Shown piece after piece: positions 6,171-60,800 of a stretch of DNA of 64,000 bases. This DNA comes from Spizellomyces punctatus DAOM BR117. Taxonomy: Eukaryota. Made by a program: the position numbers and the translations under genes. The stretch is taken from the NCBI GenBank assembly GCA_000182565.2, contig KQ257450.1. One strand, written 5' to 3'. Positions within the stretch are counted from its first letter, which is position 1. Each line of letters opens with the position of its first letter. The notes under the pieces were generated by a model that was not told the origin of the DNA, did not search any database, and worked only from the letters and a program-made list of their open reading frames with translations.

Positions 6171-7419
6171 TTATATAACACAGTATTCTTCCTCATGGCC
6201 TATTTGTGTGTCGGAAACAACATCGTCCCATAACAGCTCAAATTCTGGTGTTGATGGGAATGAACGTGACATACCAGGGAGAATGGCCACCCGTGTATGA
6301 ACGCTGGTAAAAGGATCCGTACTTTCCCTGGATGGCGTTGGTGTAAATGGCGGCGCTTCGAAGAGTGTCGTCGAAACATCGGGATAGGTTATCGGTACAG
6401 CTGCGACAAAGTTTGGGTCGGCTGCAGTCGTAGGAGATTCAGGTACAGCTGATTCCTCGTCCGCTATGGATAGAATATCATGCTCAGAACGATCTTCCTG
6501 TGTGCCGTCAGAATGCCCATCCTTCTCCGATACATGCTCCATGACACTTGCATAGTCATATACCGGATCAAAAACTTCATCCAGCAAAACCCGAAGAACT
6601 CTCCACTTTGCGCCTTCGACACTTCTTCTAATGCATTCAACCTCCCCTTTCAAGTCAACTCCGTATTTGAGCAACAGCCGCAGTACATCGTCGTGACCGG
6701 CGGCACATGCTTCGAGAGCTGCTGAAGTAAGAATCGACTGTGGTGCTGGTGGAAGATTAGCGAGGAGAACAGTGAGGAGGGACATGTTGTGCATGCGAGA
6801 CGCCCAGGCCAATGGATTGAAGGGCGCGGAAGCTAGGCGGGCTCCGCTGGCTAATAGATAGGAGGTTATCGATGGGTTTTCAGCTGAAAAGTACTGTAAA
6901 ATCAGTATAAACAACCTCCCAGGCAAGCCGTCCAAAATTTTACTTACCGACAACAGCAACAAAAACAGCACAATTGTCCGCGGCCTGAACATCCGCTCCG
7001 GCTTCCACCAGTGCCTTCACTACACTCTCGTGTCCGTGAGCGCATGCGGCAGTAAGAGGCGTCAACCGCAAGTTCTTTAAACAAGCTGCAGGGAGTCCGA
7101 GGGCATCCCAATGCCCAGCCCATGGGCGAGTTGCGTTGATTGGGGCTTTCTTTTCGAGTAAAAACCTAAAAAGTAAGATATTAGCATTAGTCCGTGACTC
7201 CTCTCCAATCTACTGAACCACATCTCACCTAACGGCTTTTACATCCCCGTCCCCACACGCATCTATTAGCAAATCTTCAAGACTCCCTTCTCGGCCAGGT
7301 AAAGGTATAGGAGATCCGCCCGTGCTCGCCAGAGGCCGCTTTTCTGTATGCTCCTCTACTGCGATCTTGTATCCGTTTTTTCCCTGACCTGGTTCCTCAT
7401 GCAGCGCAATGGACGTCAT
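6171..7419 (-). CDS. Ankyrin-repeat protein (multi-exon)
   Basis: LLIDACGDGDVKAVR, PLAWASRMHNMSLLTVLL, ALEACAAGHDDVLRLLLKYGVD ankyrin-like repeats; start codon approximate. Confidence 0.7.
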
Positions 7420-24283: not shown

Positions 24284-29483
<5,200 letters not shown>

Positions 29484-32162: not shown

Positions 32163-32235
32163 TAGTGCGGAGCCGATGGGTATTGGCACTAGCACCCGCA
32201 CCAGGGATTGAACCGGCGACAACCAGTTCGGAAAA
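32163..32235 (-). ncRNA. Fanzor omegaRNA scaffold (guide continues into flank about 32148-32162)
   Basis: Minus strand TTTTCCGAACTGGTTGTCGCCGGTTCAATCCCTGGTGCGGGTGCTAGTGCCAATACCCATCGGCTCCGCACTA just 3' of the Fanzor stop; stems GAACTGG/CCGGTTC and GTGCGG/CCGCAC; resembles the SpuFz1 omegaRNA as I recall it; conserved in two other elements here. Confidence 0.88.
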
Positions 32236-32250
32236 GGTAATCTAACTAAT

Positions 32251-34128
32251 CTACGCTACGGCTGGAACACCCCTGCTGAACACTTTTGGTCTACCGTGTC
32301 CATCTAACATTGATTGCACGATCATCAGCATGTTGCAGGTGCTCAGCGTGTCCCTGTTCCAGTAGCGCATCGTCCAGGCTTGCTGACAGTTAGGGTTGGT
32401 ACAACCCAGCAATCCATGGACTTTTTCAATCTTGCCTTCGCGACGGCGCCAAGGTCTTGAATGAGGTCGTGTTTTGAAGCCTTTTTCAAGGAAGTCAGCG
32501 GATGAGGCCAAACAGTGAGGGCAGACAGATGAGGTCTTGTACTCGTCGAGAAGGAAGCAGTTGATCCTGTTGCGCTTAAAGAGGGTGCGCCAGCCTTTCG
32601 TCTTTGATGAGGTCTGAAATCTCGCAGTTCGACCGGCATCGCTCCAATCTCCCATCACAATGGTAAAGTTCCCAAACTTGTTGTGCATGTTGGATATGAG
32701 GTCTGATTCGCTCTTCTGACGGTTTATGAATGCGTGCCATTTCCATCGCGTGTGGGCAGGGTGGGAGTAGAATTCCTTGCGACGATCCGAATCTGCGCGG
32801 CGAACAAGAAGGTAGCGAGTAAAGTCCATGAGGTTCATCGTCTTGTGGCTTGGGATACGTGATTCTATGAGGTCAATTCCCGCTTCCTTCTTCATCTGCT
32901 GTCGTTCCTTTCGCTGCCGACGGCTGCCTGTCTCCATGGCTCGCTGGTTTGCGGTGTAACGGAACGTTGTACCATTGCTGTCTTGGCAGTAGAGAATATC
33001 GCGCTTGTTTGGGTCAATGACGACAATGTTTTCTGCTGCCCGACAAGCAGGTAAGTTTTTCTCCATGTATTGCACTTTAACTTCGTCCTCTAAACTCTTT
33101 GCTGACTTTCTCGCTCCCTTTCCATACTTGTCTGCTTCTGGGTGCTTTAGGTATACAGACACCGAGGTTCCATCTGTACTGATCGAGCCTTCAAACTGCA
33201 TACCGCGGCGAGACCGAAAAGCCTTGTTCCGCAGGTTGCACACGCGCAACCATAAATCGACCTTTTCGACAGTTTCCGCTTCTCGTCGTGTGATGCAAAG
33301 GATATGCTGGTACAGGATGACGGTGTCGATGCGAATATGGGACTGCATCAGAGACCGACGAAGAGGTATTGCGCTGAACCGACGGAAGCCATGTCGTTCA
33401 TACAGCACAGAGAGTTTGCAGTAAGCAGGAAAGAAAGCGAGAGGGTCAACAGCAACCGAATATGCGAGCGGCTGGTCAGAAAGGGGAATGAAGGACCACA
33501 TCTCTTCTAGAAGCTCACTCTCCTCAGCAGTCAAGTCATCCAGTGACTCGGGCATGACATCAAAAAGAAAAATTGACTTCAAGTAGCGAAGACGAGCAAA
33601 GAAAGCTTTCCGCGCATCGCTTTTCAGTGGCAGTCGCCCCCGTCCCTTCACGTTGAGCCGCAGATTGATATACCGGAGCAGCATCTGCATGAAATGCTCT
33701 TGAATGTTGACTTTCAGGTTTGTCATCATACTCGCTGTCAGGTAATTGATTGACTGCTGCTCGCCTCGTAGATTTGGGTGAATGAAGCCGACGATTTGGC
33801 AGTACCGACGAATGTATGGCAACAAGCATCCGCGTAGTGCCTTCTTTGCTTCCTTTCTTGGATGCCAAGCCTCCCCCTTGTTGAGAAGATAGAGAATCGC
33901 TTCGATTGTATCTTCATTTACCGTGGGAAAGGTTGGTGCATATAGGATGTAGAATTTGAGAGCGTGGGAAGCATGGTCAGCGAGTTGATGGATGATGGCG
34001 ATGTAATCTAGAAGACGCTGCCGGTAGGTCTCATTAGGCAAGAAAGCTTTTGCAAAGGAAGTCTTGTTGCAGGTATGTAAGGTGGGTTTGTCGAGTTTTT
34101 CAAGCTTTTGCTTCTTTTTTGGTGGCAT
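32251..34128 (-). CDS. Fz1: Fanzor1 RNA-guided DNA endonuclease (TnpB/Cas12 family), 625 aa from MPPKKKQKL
   Basis: Intronless ORF; NLS-like PPKKKQK; RuvC-I VVIDPN, RuvC-II LDEYKTS, Zn finger CPHC...CTNPNC, RuvC-III WNRD; TDGTSVSV motif; closely resembles SpuFz1 from memory; TATATAA at 34181-34187 lies between the upstream ATG (34215) and 34128. Confidence 0.95.
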   Translation of the reverse strand: MPPKKKQKLEKLDKPTLHTCNKTSFAKAFLPNETYRQRLLDYIAIIHQLADHASHALKFYILYAPTFPTVNEDTIEAILYLLNKGEAWHPRKEAKKALRGCLLPYIRRYCQIVGFIHPNLRGEQQSINYLTASMMTNLKVNIQEHFMQMLLRYINLRLNVKGRGRLPLKSDARKAFFARLRYLKSIFLFDVMPESLDDLTAEESELLEEMWSFIPLSDQPLAYSVAVDPLAFFPAYCKLSVLYERHGFRRFSAIPLRRSLMQSHIRIDTVILYQHILCITRREAETVEKVDLWLRVCNLRNKAFRSRRGMQFEGSISTDGTSVSVYLKHPEADKYGKGARKSAKSLEDEVKVQYMEKNLPACRAAENIVVIDPNKRDILYCQDSNGTTFRYTANQRAMETGSRRQRKERQQMKKEAGIDLIESRIPSHKTMNLMDFTRYLLVRRADSDRRKEFYSHPAHTRWKWHAFINRQKSESDLISNMHNKFGNFTIVMGDWSDAGRTARFQTSSKTKGWRTLFKRNRINCFLLDEYKTSSVCPHCLASSADFLEKGFKTRPHSRPWRRREGKIEKVHGLLGCTNPNCQQAWTMRYWNRDTLSTCNMLMIVQSMLDGHGRPKVFSRGVPAVA

Positions 34129-34180
34129 TGATGATATCTGTGGGAAAAGATGAAAGCCTGGGAAAATGGGCGACGACAAC

Positions 34181-34187
34181 TTATATA
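34181..34187 (-). promoter_or_regulatory. Putative TATA box of Fanzor gene
   Basis: TATATAA about 53 nt upstream of the ATG at 34128. Confidence 0.55.
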
Positions 34188-34619
34188 GGATTTTTTGGAT
34201 CAAACCATAGTTCATGAGTCTAAATCGAGTAAAATTATGATTAAATTGGTTGGAATCTATGTACTAGTGCCAATACCAATCGGCTCCGCACTATGGAAGC
34301 TGTCACAAGATTACGTCAGCTTCAATCTCCGCTGTTCGCCACGGTTCATGCTCCGCGTACTAAAAATAACAACAATATTATGACTATCTTTCGCAGAGCC
34401 CCACGGCTCTGTCAAACGACTAATAGTTTGGCATACTTATGTGGCTTCAAATTACCGGAAGAACTTCGAAACTTCTGTCCGCAAGAGCCTTCCGAGCTTA
34501 TTCATTCTAACAGTGGCTGGTCTCTGCTCCATGAGCAACTTTTGATTCTTGTTCTGAGCCCAGCAATATTTAGGGCGAACGTCTGAGTCTGTCTGTCGTT
34601 AGTGATCCAAAGAGTCTGC

Positions 34620-46073: not shown

Positions 46074-46146
46074 TAGTGTAGAGGTGACAGAAAATGGCAC
46101 TAGCTACTACACCAGGGAATAAACCGGCGACAACCGGTTTGGAAAA
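46074..46146 (-). ncRNA. omegaRNA scaffold variant, copy 1
   Basis: TTTTCCAAACCGGTTGTCGCCGGTTTATTCCCTGGTGTAGTAGCTAGTGCCATTTTCTGTCACCTCTACACTA; stems AAACCGG/CCGGTTT and GTGTAG/CTACAC. Confidence 0.8.
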
Positions 46147-46198
46147 GCTAACTAAGCTACTACTAGGCAATTATACACGCAATACGTAACGGTTGGTT

Positions 46199-46551
46199 CT
46201 AACCGGATAATTGCCCTCCACCACACGCGGTCCCTACTAGGCCTTGATCCAGAACTCTTGATGGCATTGAAGCCAGACTCTTGCATCCAGGAGCGAATCG
46301 ACTGGGCAGCGTCACAAGCCAGAGGATGTTCAGTGACAAGGCTTGGAGACTAGAGAAAAAAACTGCATGTCAGAAGATGACCCGATGACAAGAAATGCAA
46401 GAAATGCCATCGATACATACCAACCAAGCTCAACTAATGTGGCAGCATAATAGTAGGTTTTGTTATCAGATCCGATTGGTTGCCACTGGTTCTGGTCACG
46501 GTTGCTGTCGGGCGGTCGAGGTCCTCGACACCACCACATCGGCGTTCTCAT
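46199..46551 (-). CDS. Putative spliced 93-aa cargo ORF, copy 1 (exons 46551-46421, 46349-46199)
   Basis: accATG, intron GTATGT..CTGAC..TTTCTCTAG (71 nt), frame kept in both copies; coding status unproven. Confidence 0.45.
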
Positions 46552-46669
46552 GGTTGACCGAGTCGCGATGAGGTTGCAATGTGGGTCGCAATGAGAGTTG
46601 TGCAGATGCAGATGCTTTGAGAGTCGAGGATGGGTAAAGAGGAAAGAGGGAAGAGACAGAAGGCTCCCC

Positions 46670-46676
46670 TTTTATA
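46670..46676 (-). promoter_or_regulatory. Putative TATA box in element copy 1
   Basis: TATAAAA followed by a pyrimidine-rich tract, conserved in copy 2 (54322-54328). Confidence 0.55.
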
Positions 46677-47064
46677 GACCTTTGGCATGCGCCTCACCGC
46701 AGTTTAAAAAAAAAACATTAGCATGCCACACCAATCTGAGCGATAGATGGGGGTTCTCATTATGCGATATGATTAACCGGATTCATCCGGATAATAATGA
46801 GTCCTAGTGCCATTTTCAATCGCCTCCACACTATGTGATGTGCTTATGTAATCCAGCCCATCCAATTTCAATTCTGCCTTTTACGACACGCATGGTTTGC
46901 TTTTGTGGTGAACTCACTACGACTTTATCCGCCTCTCCAATTCCCAACGTGATCAGCTGTGTGGGGAGTCAAACCACATGCTAAAAGGGCCATAGCAACC
47001 AAAGTGTGTGCAGTGTGTGTGTGTGTCGATACCGTTCTTTTTTTTCCTTTAAAATGGAGAGATC

Positions 47065-53289: not shown

Positions 53290-53612
53290 TAGTCGGAGTT
53301 GACTAGCAAGTAGACTAGCTTCCGTCTCTCGATGTGGATGCGTGTTACCTCCAGTATAGAACGACAGAGTGATGAGATTATTCCTGTGGTTCCAACGATG
53401 CGACACCTAATAAACGCGTCTTAGGCTTCAAAGTTTATCCGAAGGAAAACTACAAGCGCTATTTGTTGATACTTTGTCATCCGATAAAGCCCTACCTGGT
53501 GCATGACTTGAATATTATAGAGGGACCATGCAATGGGGGTGGCTTACACATTCAATTGGTTTTTCAATCTGGTTTTTCATCGAGAATCACATGTGGTTTG
53601 TGGTTTATCAAC

Positions 53613-53686
53613 GCCTCCTTGGCTCAGTTGGTTAGAGCGTCTGCCTAGTAAGCAGAAGGTCCCGCGTTCGAATCGCGGAGGAGGCA
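53613..53686 (+). tRNA. tRNA-Thr(AGT)
   Basis: Acceptor stem GCCTCCT/AGGAGGC, D arm GCTC..GAGC, anticodon arm TCTGC-CTAGTAA-GCAGA, T arm GTTCGAATC; TTTT about 23 nt downstream. Confidence 0.96.
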
Positions 53687-53751
53687 TCAACTGGTTTAGA
53701 GTTATTCATTTTACTCCCGGTGCCAACATCAACAGGCGGCGTGTTCTTTGC

Positions 53752-53824
53752 TAGTGTAGAGGTGACAGGAACTGGCACTAGCTACTACACCAGGGAATAA
53801 ACCGGCGACAACAGGTTCGGAAAA
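53752..53824 (-). ncRNA. omegaRNA scaffold variant, copy 2
   Basis: TTTTCCGAACCTGTTGTCGCCGGTTTATTCCCTGGTGTAGTAGCTAGTGCCAGTTCCTGTCACCTCTACACTA. Confidence 0.78.
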
Positions 53825-54483
53825 GCTAACTAAGCTACTACTAGGCAATTATACACGCAATACGTAACGGTTGGTTCTAACCGGATAATTGCCCACCACC
53901 ACACGCGGTCCCTACTAGGCCTTGATCTGGAACTCTTGATGGCATTGAAGCCCGACTCTTGCATCCAGGAGCGAATCGACTGGGCAGCGTCACAAGCCAG
54001 AGGATGTTCAGTGACAAGACTTGGAGACTATACATGCATGTTAGTGACAGAATAACATGAAAAGAGATGATGCCATTGGTACATACCAACCAAGCTCAAC
54101 TAATGTGGCAGCATAATAGTAGTTTTTGTTATCGGATCCGATTGGTTGCCACTGGTTCTGATCACTGTTGCTGTCGGGCGGTCGAGGTCCTCGACACCAC
54201 CACATCGGCGTTCTCATGGTTGACCGAGTCGCGATGAGGTTGTGTGGGTCGCAATGAGCGTTGCACAGATGCTTGCGAGTCGAGGGATAAAGAGGAAACA
54301 GGGAAGAGGGAGCAGGTCCCCTTTTATAGACCTTTGGCATGCGCCTCACTGCAGTTTAAAAAAAAAACATTAGCATGCCACACCAATCTGAGCGATAGAT
54401 GGGGGTTCTGATTATGCGATATGATTAACCGGATTAATCCGGATAATAATGAGTCCTAGTGCCATTTTCAATCACCTCCACAC
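53754..54483 (-). mobile_element. Nuclease-less Fanzor-related TIR element, copy 2 (730 bp; ghost-type)
   Basis: TIRs at 53754-53781 and 54456-54483, TA flanks at 53752-53 and 54484-85, CATA at the left junction; colinear with 46076-46831. Confidence 0.92.
53877..54217 (-). CDS. Putative spliced 93-aa cargo ORF, copy 2 (exons 54217-54087, 54027-53877)
   Basis: accATG, intron GTATGT..CACTAAC..TATAG (59 nt); exon lengths 131 and 151 identical to copy 1. Confidence 0.45.
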
Positions 54484-54870
54484 TATGTATGGATGGTTGT
54501 TGGCATTCAGGCCATGTATATTTCTTACTCTGTACAAATACAAAAATATCGCAAAGAGAGTGCAAAATGGGATAGGCATACTAAACATAACCCGGACGAC
54601 CCCGCCAGATATTCTTGTTTTTTTTTGCGTTTTCTTCGCCTTATGTCCAAAGGCCAACACATTCATCTCATATGTAAAAAAGTACGACATCTACCTCCGA
54701 CAATGGCCTATGTTACATCCCAGAATCATATGCACGATGATCGTCGTCTAAACTCATAACCGCATGTGATGTTTTTGCTACAGATGTTCATCATACAGCA
54801 TATTGAGCAAATCAGATACAAATATATACAGAACCCCGGAATCCTCACCTCACACCTTTCCAATTGAAGT

Positions 54871-57800
54871 CTATGACGAGCCACTGGGGCTGTACGCAGC
54901 GCCATTTGGCTTGGATGTACTGCTACCAGTGCCCGTTGAAGGGTTTGCACCAGCTGGAGCATACCCCCCGCCAGCGACCGGTCCTGGAGAGGTTGGGCTG
55001 AATGTTGGGGATGTGGGGGAATATTGTGGAGACGTCGGCGAGTATTGCGGCGACGTCGGGCTATATTGAGGTGATGTCGGAGAGTATTGAGGCGAGGTTG
55101 GCGAATACTGCGGTGAAGTGGGCGAGTATTGCGGTGATGTGGGGCTGTAGCTCGGACTCGTAGGTGAGTACATGGGAGACGTTGGCGAGTACTGAGGTGA
55201 AGTGGGACTGTAATTGGGCGACGTTGGGGAATACGTCGGGCTCGTTGGACTGTATTGCGGCGATGTTGGCGAATACGTTGGACTGGTAGGAGAGTAACTA
55301 GGGCTTGTAGGGCTGTAGCTTGGAGACGTTGGCGAGTAACTCGGCGACGTAGGACTATAACTCGGGCTAGTCGGCGAATAACTAGGACTTGTCGGACTGT
55401 AACTGGGGCTAGTTGGCGAATAGCTGGGTGACGTCGGCGAGTAGCTCGGGCTTGTCGGACTATAACTGGGCGATGTAGGGCTATAGCTCGGACTGGTCGG
55501 TGAGTAACTCGGACTCGTTGGGCTGTAGCTCGGACTTGTCGGACTGTAGCTCGGACTGGTGGGCGAGAAGCTTGGCGACGTCGGCGAGTAACCAGGTGAC
55601 GATGGACTGTACCCAGGACTCTGCGGACTGTACGATGGCGAGAATCTAGGTCCACCGGGTCCGCTCCAAGGCTTGCCACCATCGGAATCCACCCCGTAAG
55701 GTGAGAAAACCACAGGTCCAAGTGGGGAATAGCCACCCGCTGGAGTCATTGGCATTGGACTTCGATCCAAGTACGGAGTATGCGCCGGACTCATAAAGCC
55801 TGCCTGGAAACCAATATCCATCGCATGATGGTCTCGCATAGGGTCCATGATGGAGGGCGCCTTTTTCAACATGTCCTCGTCCAAGATAACGTCAACATAT
55901 CCAGTTCCCATAGGTGCCAACTGTCCAAGAATGATATTCTCCGACACACCCTTACAGTCATCAACTTCACCCATGCCAGCTGCTTCAATGAGTAACTCGA
56001 CCGTCTCTTCGAATGAAGATCTGGCCAACGCTCCAGCTTCCGTTCGGTTGATACCATGGCGTGTGATAGCCATCAAGTGACCACGTTGCGTCATAATATC
56101 GCAAAGCAGCGCCAAATGCCGATAGTTGACGTAGGAACCGTCGAACTCGATGACCTTACGCACTTCTTTCAACACTGCCGCACGAGTCGCTTCGATGCCA
56201 AACACATCGTTGATCTCAACAGTGAAGTTGGAGTACGTTCTTTGGGCATCAACTCCATCATGAGCGAGCACGGCAGCCAATGCTGTCCCGTCCGTCTCAA
56301 GGAACCATTCTTTCTCTCCGTTTGCATTAAGTCGTCCGTCGTGATCATAGGTAGGCCGGTTGAATTCAGAAATGAAAGCTCGTTGGATACCAGGGACACC
56401 AGCCAGAGTAATTTGCGTTAGCATATTCTCTTCAACTTTCTTCAAGAACTGGTCTTCATCCAGTTTGCTATCATCATCCTCCTCCCCCTGTTTTGCCTCG
56501 CTCACGATACGCGCAAGAATGACCAACTCCTCCGCGTTGTCATCAGAACACCAACACTTCAAATCGCCTTGGAACTCATCCATAATACGGGCACAGATGG
56601 CTTCGAGACTCAATCCCTTATCGAGCTTTCGTCTGAAATCCAACTTAATGCGCAACACCCACGGTGAGTATCTGCTGAAATCATCGTCCTCCATGTCACC
56701 ATAAGGCTGCATTATAATACGATCTCCTTCAATGACCGAATTCAGTGGGTCCGGATCGTACCAAATCTCCGTCTCCGCCGTAAGGCTCATCAAAGTGGTA
56801 TGTGGGAGTGTACTTTGAATCCGTTTCGCTCGGTCAACAGACGTACGATAATCTGCATCCAAGAATACAGACACACTTGGGGTCTTTATATTCTTAGCAA
56901 CGTTGATGATTTCCTTCAATCGAGGTACACCTAGCGTCACGTTTTTGGAACTGACACCAGCAAAGTGAAACGTGTTCAAGGTCATCTGCGTTGCTGGCTC
57001 TCCGATGGATTGTGCGGCAAGAACTCCAACCATTTCACCCGGGTTGACGATGCATTGATTGAAGCGAGTGTGGATTTCATTGATTATCCAATCAAAGGCT
57101 TCGGGGTTCAGATGGAACTCTTCGATGACACGTCGGGACGCCAACGTGCTTCGAATAAGGATCTGAAACAAAAGTGTGGCATTCTCTTGCCCTTCTCTAC
57201 TGAGATCATCATTTCCGCGAACGACGATCAGCTTTTGCAAGAGATCCTGAACACTGTCCATAACCTTGACAGGATGCAGGCCCGTGGGTTTATTGCGATC
57301 AACTTTGAAGGCATTCTGCGCATTCCATATCATCCGACGAATATTCAGCGGCAATGGCCATGTAGTGGTACTATTGTCACGGAAAATCTGTTGTCGAAGA
57401 ATGCGGCGGTCTTCCTCAAGCTGTTCAAACTCGGCGTCAAACCGTGCCTGCGCTTCGCTTTTGATCAGCTCTTCGGAAATACGGAAGTCCAGCGTATTCG
57501 GTTTCCATCCATGCGGACCATCAGCGACATCAACCTTGTACTTGCTGCGGAACTGCTGGTCAGATATCTTCATGGTGTCCAGGCTCTGCTTTTCCACCTT
57601 TGCTCCGTCCATGCCGTCTTCTCCGTAACAAAATTGAACAATTTCACCTAATGCATTCCGAACCGTGCCATCATACTGTGCCATCAAATCCTCCAGTGCT
57701 TTCACAAGACGGCGTTGAATATACCCAGTTTCTGCAGTCTTCACGGCCGTGTCGATCAAACCTTCACGTCCACCCATGGCATGGAAGAAAAACTCTTGCG

Positions 57801-60800
57801 GTGTCAGACCCCTCAAGTATGAGTTTTCAACAAAACCTCGACTTTCGGGCGTATGATCGTCCTTTGTAAAGTGCGGCAATGAACGATACTTGAACCCAAA
57901 TGGTATACGCTTTCCTTCAACGTTTTGCTGTCCGACACAAGCTGACATTTGCGAAATGTTGATGTACGATCCTTTGGATCCGGCAACCACCATCTGCTTC
58001 ACATTATTGTATTCTTTGAGAGAGGCCTGAGCGCTCTTACCCGCGTTGTCACGGGCACGATTGAGCTCCTTGTTGACTAAGGACTCGAAACTCTCACGGA
58101 TCGTCATACCAGGCAAACCTTCAAGTTTATCAGATTGAGCTTTCTCAATGATTTTGGTCACCTCCTTCTTCGCATTCGAGATAGTTGAGGTAATCTGATC
58201 AGATGTCGGCCGATCTGCGATGGTGTCACCAATACCAATAGAGAATCCGTTTTGCAGTAGCCAATGGTTAACAACCAATTGAGTCCCATTGAAAAACGCC
58301 TTTGCCGCCTCCGGTCCATGCTCATTCATTGTGACGTGAATGATACCATTCGCAGAACTACCCACCGTCTTCTTACAAAGAATGCCGGTGAGCAACTCCC
58401 CGTTTTCAATCAGGACCTTACAATCACTCGAGCTTCCGTCATCTTTATCAGTTTGCTCATCAAATGCAGAGTGGTATCCAGTGACGTTGATTTTAGGTGG
58501 GATGACCAAACTCATGATTTGCTTTCCAGTCCACAAAGGTACCGGCTTAAGAATGGCCGGCTGAGGAACTGTTCCATCCCAATCCGGTACCCACATCAAA
58601 AGGTTCATGACAAAGTCCCGCCGTAGAAAGGTATCGCGCTTTGTGAATTTACGGATACCACAAAGCGTATCCTGAACGATTCCCATAACAGGTGCGTTTT
58701 TTTGCGGTGATACAATTTGCTTTGGTACCATGCAAAGCTCCATCAGCTCGGCTTTTGTCTCATACGACTGCGGCACGTGTAAGTTCATCTCATCTCCATC
58801 GAAATCGGCGTTATACGGACTTGTTACCGACAGATTCAGACGGAAGGTGGAGTAAGGCATAACCTTTACTCTGTGGCCCATCATACTCATTTTGTGTAGT
58901 GACGGCTGACGGTTGAAAATGACAATATCGTTATCCATCAAATGCCGTTCCACGCGATAGCCGTTTTGAAGATGAATATCTCCACCACGGCGATTATACC
59001 GTAGGTCGATTCGTTGGCCATCATCTTTGATGACGTATTTGGCCCCCCCATGTTCTAAAGGTCCCTTTCGTACCATCTCCTGCAAACGGTGAATATTGTA
59101 CGGCGTGACTGTCTCGGGGAAAGTCAAGTTGCGGGCAATGCTCCGGGGTACCCCAACCTCGTCAATCGAAAGATTGGGGTCACCAGTGATGACAGTACGA
59201 GCTGAGAAATCTACACGTTTCCCCATCAAGTTTCCACGTAAACGACCTTCCTTTCCTTTTAGACGAGCTCGAATGGATTTCAACTAAGACACAAACATGA
59301 GTCAACCACAAAACTGCTCTCGTCGAATGACAAGACGATAATGATCTTACCGGTCGCCCAGACTTTTGTAAAGACGGAGGAAGCCCGGCGATGTCATTAT
59401 CCATGTAAGTGGCGATGTGATACTGCAGTAGCTTTTCAAACTCGTTTATGACATGTGCTGGTGATCCTTCCGTCTCGTGCTTCCGCAGAAAGCTATTTGC
59501 CAGGACGATATCACGCAATTTATGTGTCAAATCATCCTGATTTGTCGCCACACCATCCATGCTGACAGCCGGTCGAACTGCCATCGGTGGAACAGGAAGT
59601 ACAGTGATAATCATCCACTCTGGTCGAGCCCAGTCTGGATTTAACCCCAAGCTCATACAATCATCCTCGCTGATCTTCTGGAAAAGCTGATGGACCTTTT
59701 CCGCCGTCAACGGTTCAGTTTTCGGTTCTTGGCCGCTTTCCTCCTGCATAGAAAGGACACAAGATTAATTATGTTGGGAAAAATATGTGAACAAAGCATG
59801 TCCCTTACCTCATCCTTGGTGGCTTTCCAGTACGTAGCTAGCTGCAACGGCCCCTCTTTTTTGAAAATGGGCTGCCTTCCGCCGCAGCCTCCATGAGTGG
59901 GCTTTGACTTGTAGGGATCCTCCATGTCCATCTAGTTGTCAGGTATACTAGGTGAGTTGTCCCAGACAAATGGCAGATCAATGTCTAGCTTTACCATGTC
60001 ATCATCGTCTGGAGCAGTATCGCTGCCCTCGCACACCATTTTGGTCTTGCAAATCTCCCACACCGCATGAAATCGCCGCTTTTTGTCTTTAATGATCCTT
60101 GCCTGGCGAAACCGCTCATTGCTGTGACCGTGGGNNNNNNNNNNNNNNNNNNNNNNNNNNNNNNNNNNNNNNNNNNNNNNNNNNNNNNNNNNNNNNNNNN
60201 NNNNNNNNNNNNNNNNNNNNNNNNNNNNNNNNNNGAGACTATATTGCAGATTCAGTACCTTTAGCTTGCCGCAATGAAAGCACACGCATTCCAAGATCTT
60301 TTTGATCTTGCTGATGAAGCCTACGCGAAGAACATCAATAGAGAGTCACAAACAGTATGGGCATTGCGACATCCAGGCACAGAGCAGGTTCATGATTTGT
60401 TTTCCCATTGGTGACCTCCATTGACACTCTTGCCATCAACTATCAAGCAAGGCTTACCAGCGTGATACACGGGCTTGGCAAGATCAATGTGGCCAAAGTG
60501 ACCGGGACAATCTGTCATGTTCTCGCCACAGGTAGCACATCTGAAGTTCCTATCAGTGGTTCCTAGCCGTCTATCCAGTAGACCGCCAGTTTTGGGGTTG
60601 TTTTCACTTTCATAAAACTCGGGATGCTCCACTTTGACGACAGACATGGCTTTCTACATTTGTCAATAAAGAGAGGAAGAATCAAAGAGGTTGAGGAAAG
60701 ATATTCACATCGGAAATGGCAACCACAAAGTGCAAAAAGTATTGAAAGAAGGTGATAGAGACGGATATATAGCTCCACCAAGAATTCTGAACGAAAACAC

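Follow-up and report, generated by a model that had tools for sequence, protein, structure and literature searches.

The element at positions 53752-54487 (minus strand) of the 64,000-nucleotide stretch of DNA from the soil fungus Spizellomyces punctatus analysed here (the window) is a ghost Spu-1 transposon of 736 nt, a length that includes the CATA and the duplicated TA, and such non-autonomous ghosts are probably built as stand-alone guide-RNA genes. Between Spu-1-type ends they hold a unit without relation to the Fanzor ORF, made up of a TATA promoter, a single spliceosomal intron and an RNA of about 0.5 kb, probably non-coding, with the omegaRNA scaffold and host flank as its 3' part. The element, the locus and the idea of a guide repertoire are known. 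Saito et al. 2023 (PMC10432273) catalogue 134 ghost Spu-1 loci, propose a guide repertoire that includes them, and found four ghost scaffolds to guide SpuFz1 in human cells. As locus and repertoire idea are published, the finding as first posed is an ordinary one and its value lies in the evidence for a transcription unit: ghosts have their own promoter, yield abundant spliced RNA and do not need a neighbouring gene for their expression. In the accessible text of Saito et al. the ghost interior is described no further than as some 550 nt of conserved sequence, native omegaRNA is reported from four Fanzor loci only, and there is no mention of ghost promoter, intron, expression or tRNA proximity, which the supplement PDF or figures might hold. 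The same gap is seen in the accessible parts of PMC10530073, PMC10711439 and bioRxiv 2023.08.09.552727, and ghost promoter, intron and native expression are undescribed in the literature searched, in which subscription papers are thinly covered.

Anatomy of the element and its family

The element begins with CATA (54484-54487), at once the SpuFz1 TAM (PMC10432273) and the insertion site (CA plus duplicated TA). The 30-nt inverted repeat of the left end (54456-54485) has the same coordinates in the supplement of Saito et al., while the 30-nt repeat of the right end (53752-53781), which departs from the family pattern at a single position and has the TA in place, is part of the 75-nt omegaRNA scaffold (53752-53826). 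The latter is identified by its homology to the Fanzor-locus right end (76% identical over 92 columns, E 5e-15), and is followed by a predicted guide of 15 nt taken from the host flank (53737-53751; guide length from PMC10432273). The ghost-type element with CATA/TA junctions of the preliminary description is hence borne out by repeats, junctions and scaffold alike, and it is an ordinary member of its family: it resembles the ghost Spu-1 of Saito et al. in the 30-nt repeats, the upstream CA, the 75-nt scaffold and the lack of a Fanzor ORF, and differs from it in nothing of kind. Supplement file 7 of that study lists the locus with the same ends (1010570_1010541 and 1009866_1009837, equal to G000:C1:1009837-1010572) together with the tRNA-Thr gene SPPG_10014, and the second ghost of the window, copy 1, likewise with identical end coordinates. 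A search of the genome (24.13 Mb in 38 contigs) returned 103 right-end matches against 0 for the reversed control, which is not chance; 62 of them are on the minus and 41 on the plus strand. Among 85 loci fetched for comparison (L001-L085), CATA is present at 61 of 79 left ends.

Copy 1 (46074-46835, minus strand) shows the same anatomy in the alignment, with a 71-nt intron and an intact stem 1. The two copies align end to end, at 93.5% identity over the part from promoter to right end. As described earlier, their exons are equal in size (131 nt for exon 1, 276 nt for exon 2 counted to the right end) and their predicted guides are those given; their introns are unlike in length (59 nt here against 71 nt). 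The 500-nt flanks on either side give no BLAST match between the two copies, in agreement with an independent insertion.

The related Fanzor1 element, SPu-1, was described by Bao and Jurka 2013 (PMC3627910). In the window it occupies 32163-34296 (minus strand) with an intact Fanzor1 ORF (32251-34215), the SpuFz1-like start of which is the ATG at 34128. The ORF product matches S. punctatus Fanzor1 (PDB 8gkh) with E=0 and aligned catalytic motifs; the identification was made through PDB, a Pfam search of the protein giving no match. Related ends, a putative TA duplication, the CATA TAM and a homologous right-end scaffold are shared between the ghost and the SPu-1/SpuFz1 element (PMC3627910; PDB 8gkh). 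In contrast to the latter, the ghost contains no Fanzor sequence: no Fanzor ORF lies between its ends, the Fanzor element of the window is matched in BLAST at the ends only, and the interior did not arise by deletion from the Fanzor ORF. This Fanzor element and the two ghosts share the minus strand and fall within 22.4 kb (32163-54487).

Promoter, splicing and native transcription

The internal Pol II promoter has its TATA box at 54322-54328. The 26-nt family motif holding this box is found at 130 places in the genome against 0 in the control, and 26 of the promoter sites have no known right end. In the comparison of copies, the 70 fetched loci with the promoter motif were counted as 70 distinct copies, and the remaining 15 of the 85, being fragments, diverged or longer than the fetched stretch, were left out. 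Exon 1, taken from its ATG, covers 131 nt (54087-54217) and opens a 93-codon ORF; a spliceosomal intron of 59 nt (54028-54086) follows, with a GTATGT donor, a branch point at 54040-54045 and a TAG acceptor, and the part of exon 2 upstream of the scaffold (53827-54027) contains the ORF stop (53877-53879). These signals are nearly constant in the family, with a GT donor in 68 of the 70 copies, a branch point in 67 of 68 and an AG acceptor in 66 of 68; two of the 70 have an internal deletion. The copies fall into two subfamilies (61 and 7 copies) with unrelated intron bodies and the same splice signals. In the smaller one (L038, L040, L045, L048, L051, L073 and L076) the exons are shorter and the unrelated intron sits at the same position. 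Within 51 copies of type A, divergence is 0.24 in the intron body versus 0 at the donor.

Expression was read from one run, X15 (1,029 million letters, about 6% of the run, in reads of at most 60 nt). To judge from RPB1 and a plus-strand neighbour, its first mates represent the sense strand and its depth has a 3' bias; reads from all copies are pooled in it. Runs X9 and X10 were excluded from expression, as they behave like DNA, and the use of X1 as RNA is a guess. Splicing is seen at the family level in 529 junction reads of X15 with 15 different starts, mostly from other copies, and in one X1 contig. Family-pooled minus-strand depth peaks at 26,440 (53852-53972), amounts to 6,175-6,629 in the scaffold and is about 3,340 near the right end. 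The 3' UTR of the adjacent RPB1 gene has a depth of 135-168, so that the ghost scaffold, pooled over the family, exceeds the 3' end of RPB1 about 20-40 times. TATA promoter, GT-AG intron with branch point and spliced reads together make this a spliced Pol II gene at the family level. The 3'-biased profile suggests poly(A) capture, the library design itself being deduced from depth, and the ghost transcript would be capped and polyadenylated.

Three alleles private to the element at 53752-54487 among the 70 copies (49 of 3338, 76 of 6246 and 251 of 15469 reads) assign about 1.2-1.6% of the reads to this copy, about double what each of 130 copies would give if all contributed equally, and it is transcribed at roughly the level of RPB1. 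In this one run its transcription continues through scaffold and guide into unique flank; guide position 53751 is covered by 69 minus-strand reads, 14 of them with another letter. Further downstream (53610-53730, minus strand) the ghost transcript runs antisense over the tRNA-Thr gene at a mean depth of 11.

The RPB1 coding region, a long ORF with Pfam Rpb1 domains, lies at 54871-59283 on the same strand, and its 3' UTR contains a 71-nt intron (about 54778-54848; 14 junction reads). The distance from the RPB1 end (54871) to the ghost left end is 383 nt, in keeping with the roughly 390 bp past the stop given earlier. RPB1 reads do enter the left end, as 76 reads carry this copy's allele at 54452. 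Minus-strand depth then drops from 193 at 54427 to 79 at 54407, 25 at 54400, 1 at 54350 and 7 at 54337, and is back to 276 at 54265, which brackets the transcription start between 54337 and 54265; the depth of 1 at 54299 has no part in this placement, since this copy is divergent there. Plus-strand depth is 59 at 54350 and 114 at 54337, so the minus-strand drop is not an effect of mappability. The left end accordingly halts incoming transcripts, here those of the RPB1 3' UTR, in a stop zone at 54400-54427, and transcription of the ghost begins anew past its TATA box. We infer a poly(A) site within this zone. The RPB1 mRNA apparently has its 3' end within the left end of the ghost (54400-54487); reads with alleles of other copies stop in the same zone, and the left end may be a general terminator. 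The earlier proposal that RPB1 read-through adds to ghost expression finds little room, given a minus-strand depth of 1-7 across the promoter and the presence of an own promoter; a minor share is possible, since 3'-biased reads would hide it.

One expressed copy lacks the transposon ends. L045 (G000:C11, about 801,990-802,420, minus strand) is a solo promoter-intron unit with neither end nor scaffold, and an Rfam search of it returned nothing. Its similarity to the ghosts stops where that of the Fanzor right end begins (query 653 versus 650), and it is either a donor gene or a truncated copy. Its expression is strong, with 8,132 reads carrying the 3' continuation peculiar to L045, so that the promoter-intron unit works alone, and high expression is in itself no proof of guide supply.

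Scaffold conservation and coding potential

L045 is also an argument for regarding the promoter-intron unit as passive cargo, namely an lncRNA or small gene of the host that was captured and whose abundant RNA never becomes a working omegaRNA and whose scaffold is kept mainly for the overlapping transposon end. The silence of the accessible text of Saito et al. (PMC10432273) on native ghost omegaRNA points the same way. This explanation is nevertheless unlikely. The scaffold diverges by 0.037 versus 0.10-0.15 in exons and 5' UTR, and stem 1, which is outside the 30-nt repeat, is yet conserved with a compensated pair (G-C in 45 of 69 copies, A-U in 17 of 69). Moreover, ghost scaffolds work with SpuFz1 (PMC10432273).

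The scaffold of the present copy deviates from this pattern. A private change at 53813 creates a U.C mismatch in stem 1, and a second one at 53769 falls within a part of stem 2 found dispensable by Saito et al. (PMC10432273). The two-stem fold is less stable than that of copy 1 (z -1.17 versus -2.90). Because of the stem-1 mismatch this copy may be a weaker guide, as far as can be predicted from its sequence.

The type-A copies are block mosaics in which linkage declines as distance grows (rho -0.36; 0 of 1000 permutations). This fits frequent recombination between copies, which could arise without Fanzor.

Still less probable is that the unit encodes a small peptide, with the exon-1 motif WCRGPRPPD, acting in transposition or regulation. 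An ATG is present in nearly all copies, the nine-codon block of this motif (picked post hoc) has 7 synonymous versus 4 rarer non-synonymous alleles among those in at least 3 copies, and two copies are annotated in RefSeq with the same splice as isolated uncharacterized proteins (SPPG_09412 and SPPG_08830). Against this, shared variants over the whole 93-codon spliced frame are 44 synonymous versus 104 non-synonymous (30%), which is near the neutral 24.6% and near the other two frames (41/108 and 40/109), so that no purifying selection on the small ORF is detected in the variant counts. The YY and GLV motifs are both in frame in just 25 of 51 type-A copies, exon-1 length occurring in all three phases. 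Among longer proteins the exon-1 peptide matched the two S. punctatus models only (2 of 2 candidates), and at similar length nothing; no homologue outside S. punctatus was found, the ESM Atlas gave no usable match, and the exon-1 DNA motif had 0 matches in JGI metagenomes. The ghost RNA is thus probably non-coding.

Guide targets, tRNA neighbours and guide supply in trans

The loci L001-L085 have 79 different 15-mers after their right ends, which upholds the earlier statement, already published, that each insertion creates a new guide. Only two guides are seen twice, one from a copy fetched twice and one from a duplicated region; L025 and L026 (G000:C3:1261925 and 1224413) share flanks and guide in a segmental duplication. 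The guide of the present copy, searched as CATA plus 15 nt with up to 3 mismatches, has 8 matches in the genome versus 7 for the reversed control, none of them perfect, and its best genome match is its own locus, without a TAM. In IMG/VR a 16-mer gives 9 matches, compared with 12 for the reversed 16-mer, and no match covers the whole guide. Of the proposed distributed repertoire, the new guide at each insertion therefore stands, whereas foreign or other genomic targets do not rise above chance. With no such target elsewhere, the guide points to its own empty insertion site as the expected target, which fits the vacant-site cleavage model for TnpB (PMC10690162).

Beyond the guide, on the opposite strand, lies the tRNA-Thr(AGT) gene (53613-53686, plus strand; SPPG_10014 in the supplement of Saito et al.), at 65 nt from the duplicated TA and 67 nt from the base after it, matching the 67 bp first noted. 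An Rfam search over 53400-54900 gave this tRNA only, apart from one sub-threshold match to the bases it occupies. Among the 134 ghost records of supplement file 7 there are 12 tRNA features, with gaps of 65 (this locus), 75, 88, 88, 94, 139, 215, 269, 272, 394 and 1014 nt and the twelfth between annotated ends. The latter, a tRNA-Gly annotated between two ghost ends (end NW_015971550:356192), is either a capture or a mis-paired end; in one Fanzor-locus record a tRNA is 47 nt from an end. Six of the 134 ghost loci lie within 150 bp of a tRNA and ten within 400 bp (five upstream of the tRNA, five downstream), the other 124 records having no annotated tRNA within 400 bp. With the present locus left out, 5 are seen within 150 bp where 0.95-1.53 are expected, and 9 within 400 bp where 2.5-4.1 are expected (P 0.001-0.024), under a null of 200-230 tRNA genes (from locus tags) and 25-35% intergenic DNA, both of which are estimates. 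Two tRNA-Ala cases are maybe one duplication, and the record flanks are short and uneven. A genome search with the Rfam tRNA model (63 of 1045 candidates scored) missed this tRNA-Thr and was not used for the enrichment. The suspected enrichment near tRNAs accordingly amounts to about 2-5-fold over the assumed intergenic null, and concerns under 10% of the copies, on both sides. The bias is mild and compatible with open intergenic chromatin rather than targeting.

Retroelements such as Ty1 and Ty3 target tRNA genes, and some ghost copies are likewise 65-140 nt from such genes. Unlike these, ghosts are near tRNAs in under 10% of cases, on both sides and in both orientations, and are DNA elements with a CATA site. 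A tRNA-targeted element was rejected as a class, ghosts having no fixed position next to Pol III genes (10 of 134 within 400 bp, sides mixed). The combination put forward in the preliminary description, of substantial RPB1 read-through, tRNA-targeted placement and a repertoire directed against viruses or other loci, can draw on the RPB1 reads in the left end and on the tRNA enrichment, and is the least credible of the readings in view of the nearly empty promoter region, a read share only about twice the even one, the 124 loci away from tRNAs and the chance-level target counts.

As a probable stand-alone guide-RNA gene, the ghost has partial parallels elsewhere. MITEs are short non-autonomous elements with terminal repeats, and snoRNA host lncRNAs are spliced non-coding Pol II transcripts carrying a small guide RNA. 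The ghost differs from snoRNA hosts in that its guide RNA belongs to the last exon instead of an intron, and in that the host unit is mobile. In IS200/IS605 TnpB elements the omegaRNA is cut from the element's own mRNA (Nety et al. 2023, PMC10278001). The ghost would resemble these in that a longer RNA ends in the guide RNA, the guide derives from the flank and the vacant site is the target, whereas the guide RNA is carried here by a spliced eukaryotic RNA that is apparently non-coding and does not come from the nuclease gene. By analogy with TnpB, the ghost transcript would most likely be trimmed to an omegaRNA of roughly 90 nt and loaded into SpuFz1 made by full-length elements; an empty CATA+guide allele would then be cut, and homologous recombination would restore or spread the element.

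The tRNA A-box/B-box pattern has 178 matches in the genome versus 7 in the control. At least 12, among the 100 matches listed, are on Fanzor-locus right ends, the window's site being 32200-32258 (minus strand). At 42 sites the A-box-like sequence and the Fanzor stop codon overlap, 25 of these having the canonical GG (AG in the window's copy), and the B box sits in the Fanzor scaffold and is kept in 0 of 70 ghosts. The pattern is a possible internal Pol III promoter, a suggestion made from motif matches. On a more tentative view, for which the balance is slightly unfavorable, Spu-1 ends took up a Pol II unit that is strong and spliced, the RNAs of some 130 copies are trimmed to omegaRNA and are the main in vivo guides for Fanzor in trans, and Fanzor loci may instead be served by the A-box/B-box Pol III promoter, which the ghosts would have lost. 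If true, there would be two separate guide RNA routes in one genome.

The host role of Fanzor, and ghosts as suppliers of guides in trans, are named as open questions by Saito et al. (PMC10432273). The supply in trans is now directly testable, as private alleles mark each copy and one promoter family drives all. At the present locus, the data suggest that the RPB1 mRNA takes its 3' end from the end of a transposon. The conserved promoter, the splicing of the intron and the strong native expression show ghosts to be independent units of transcription, and this suggests how a eukaryote may express an OMEGA guide apart from the mRNA of its nuclease.
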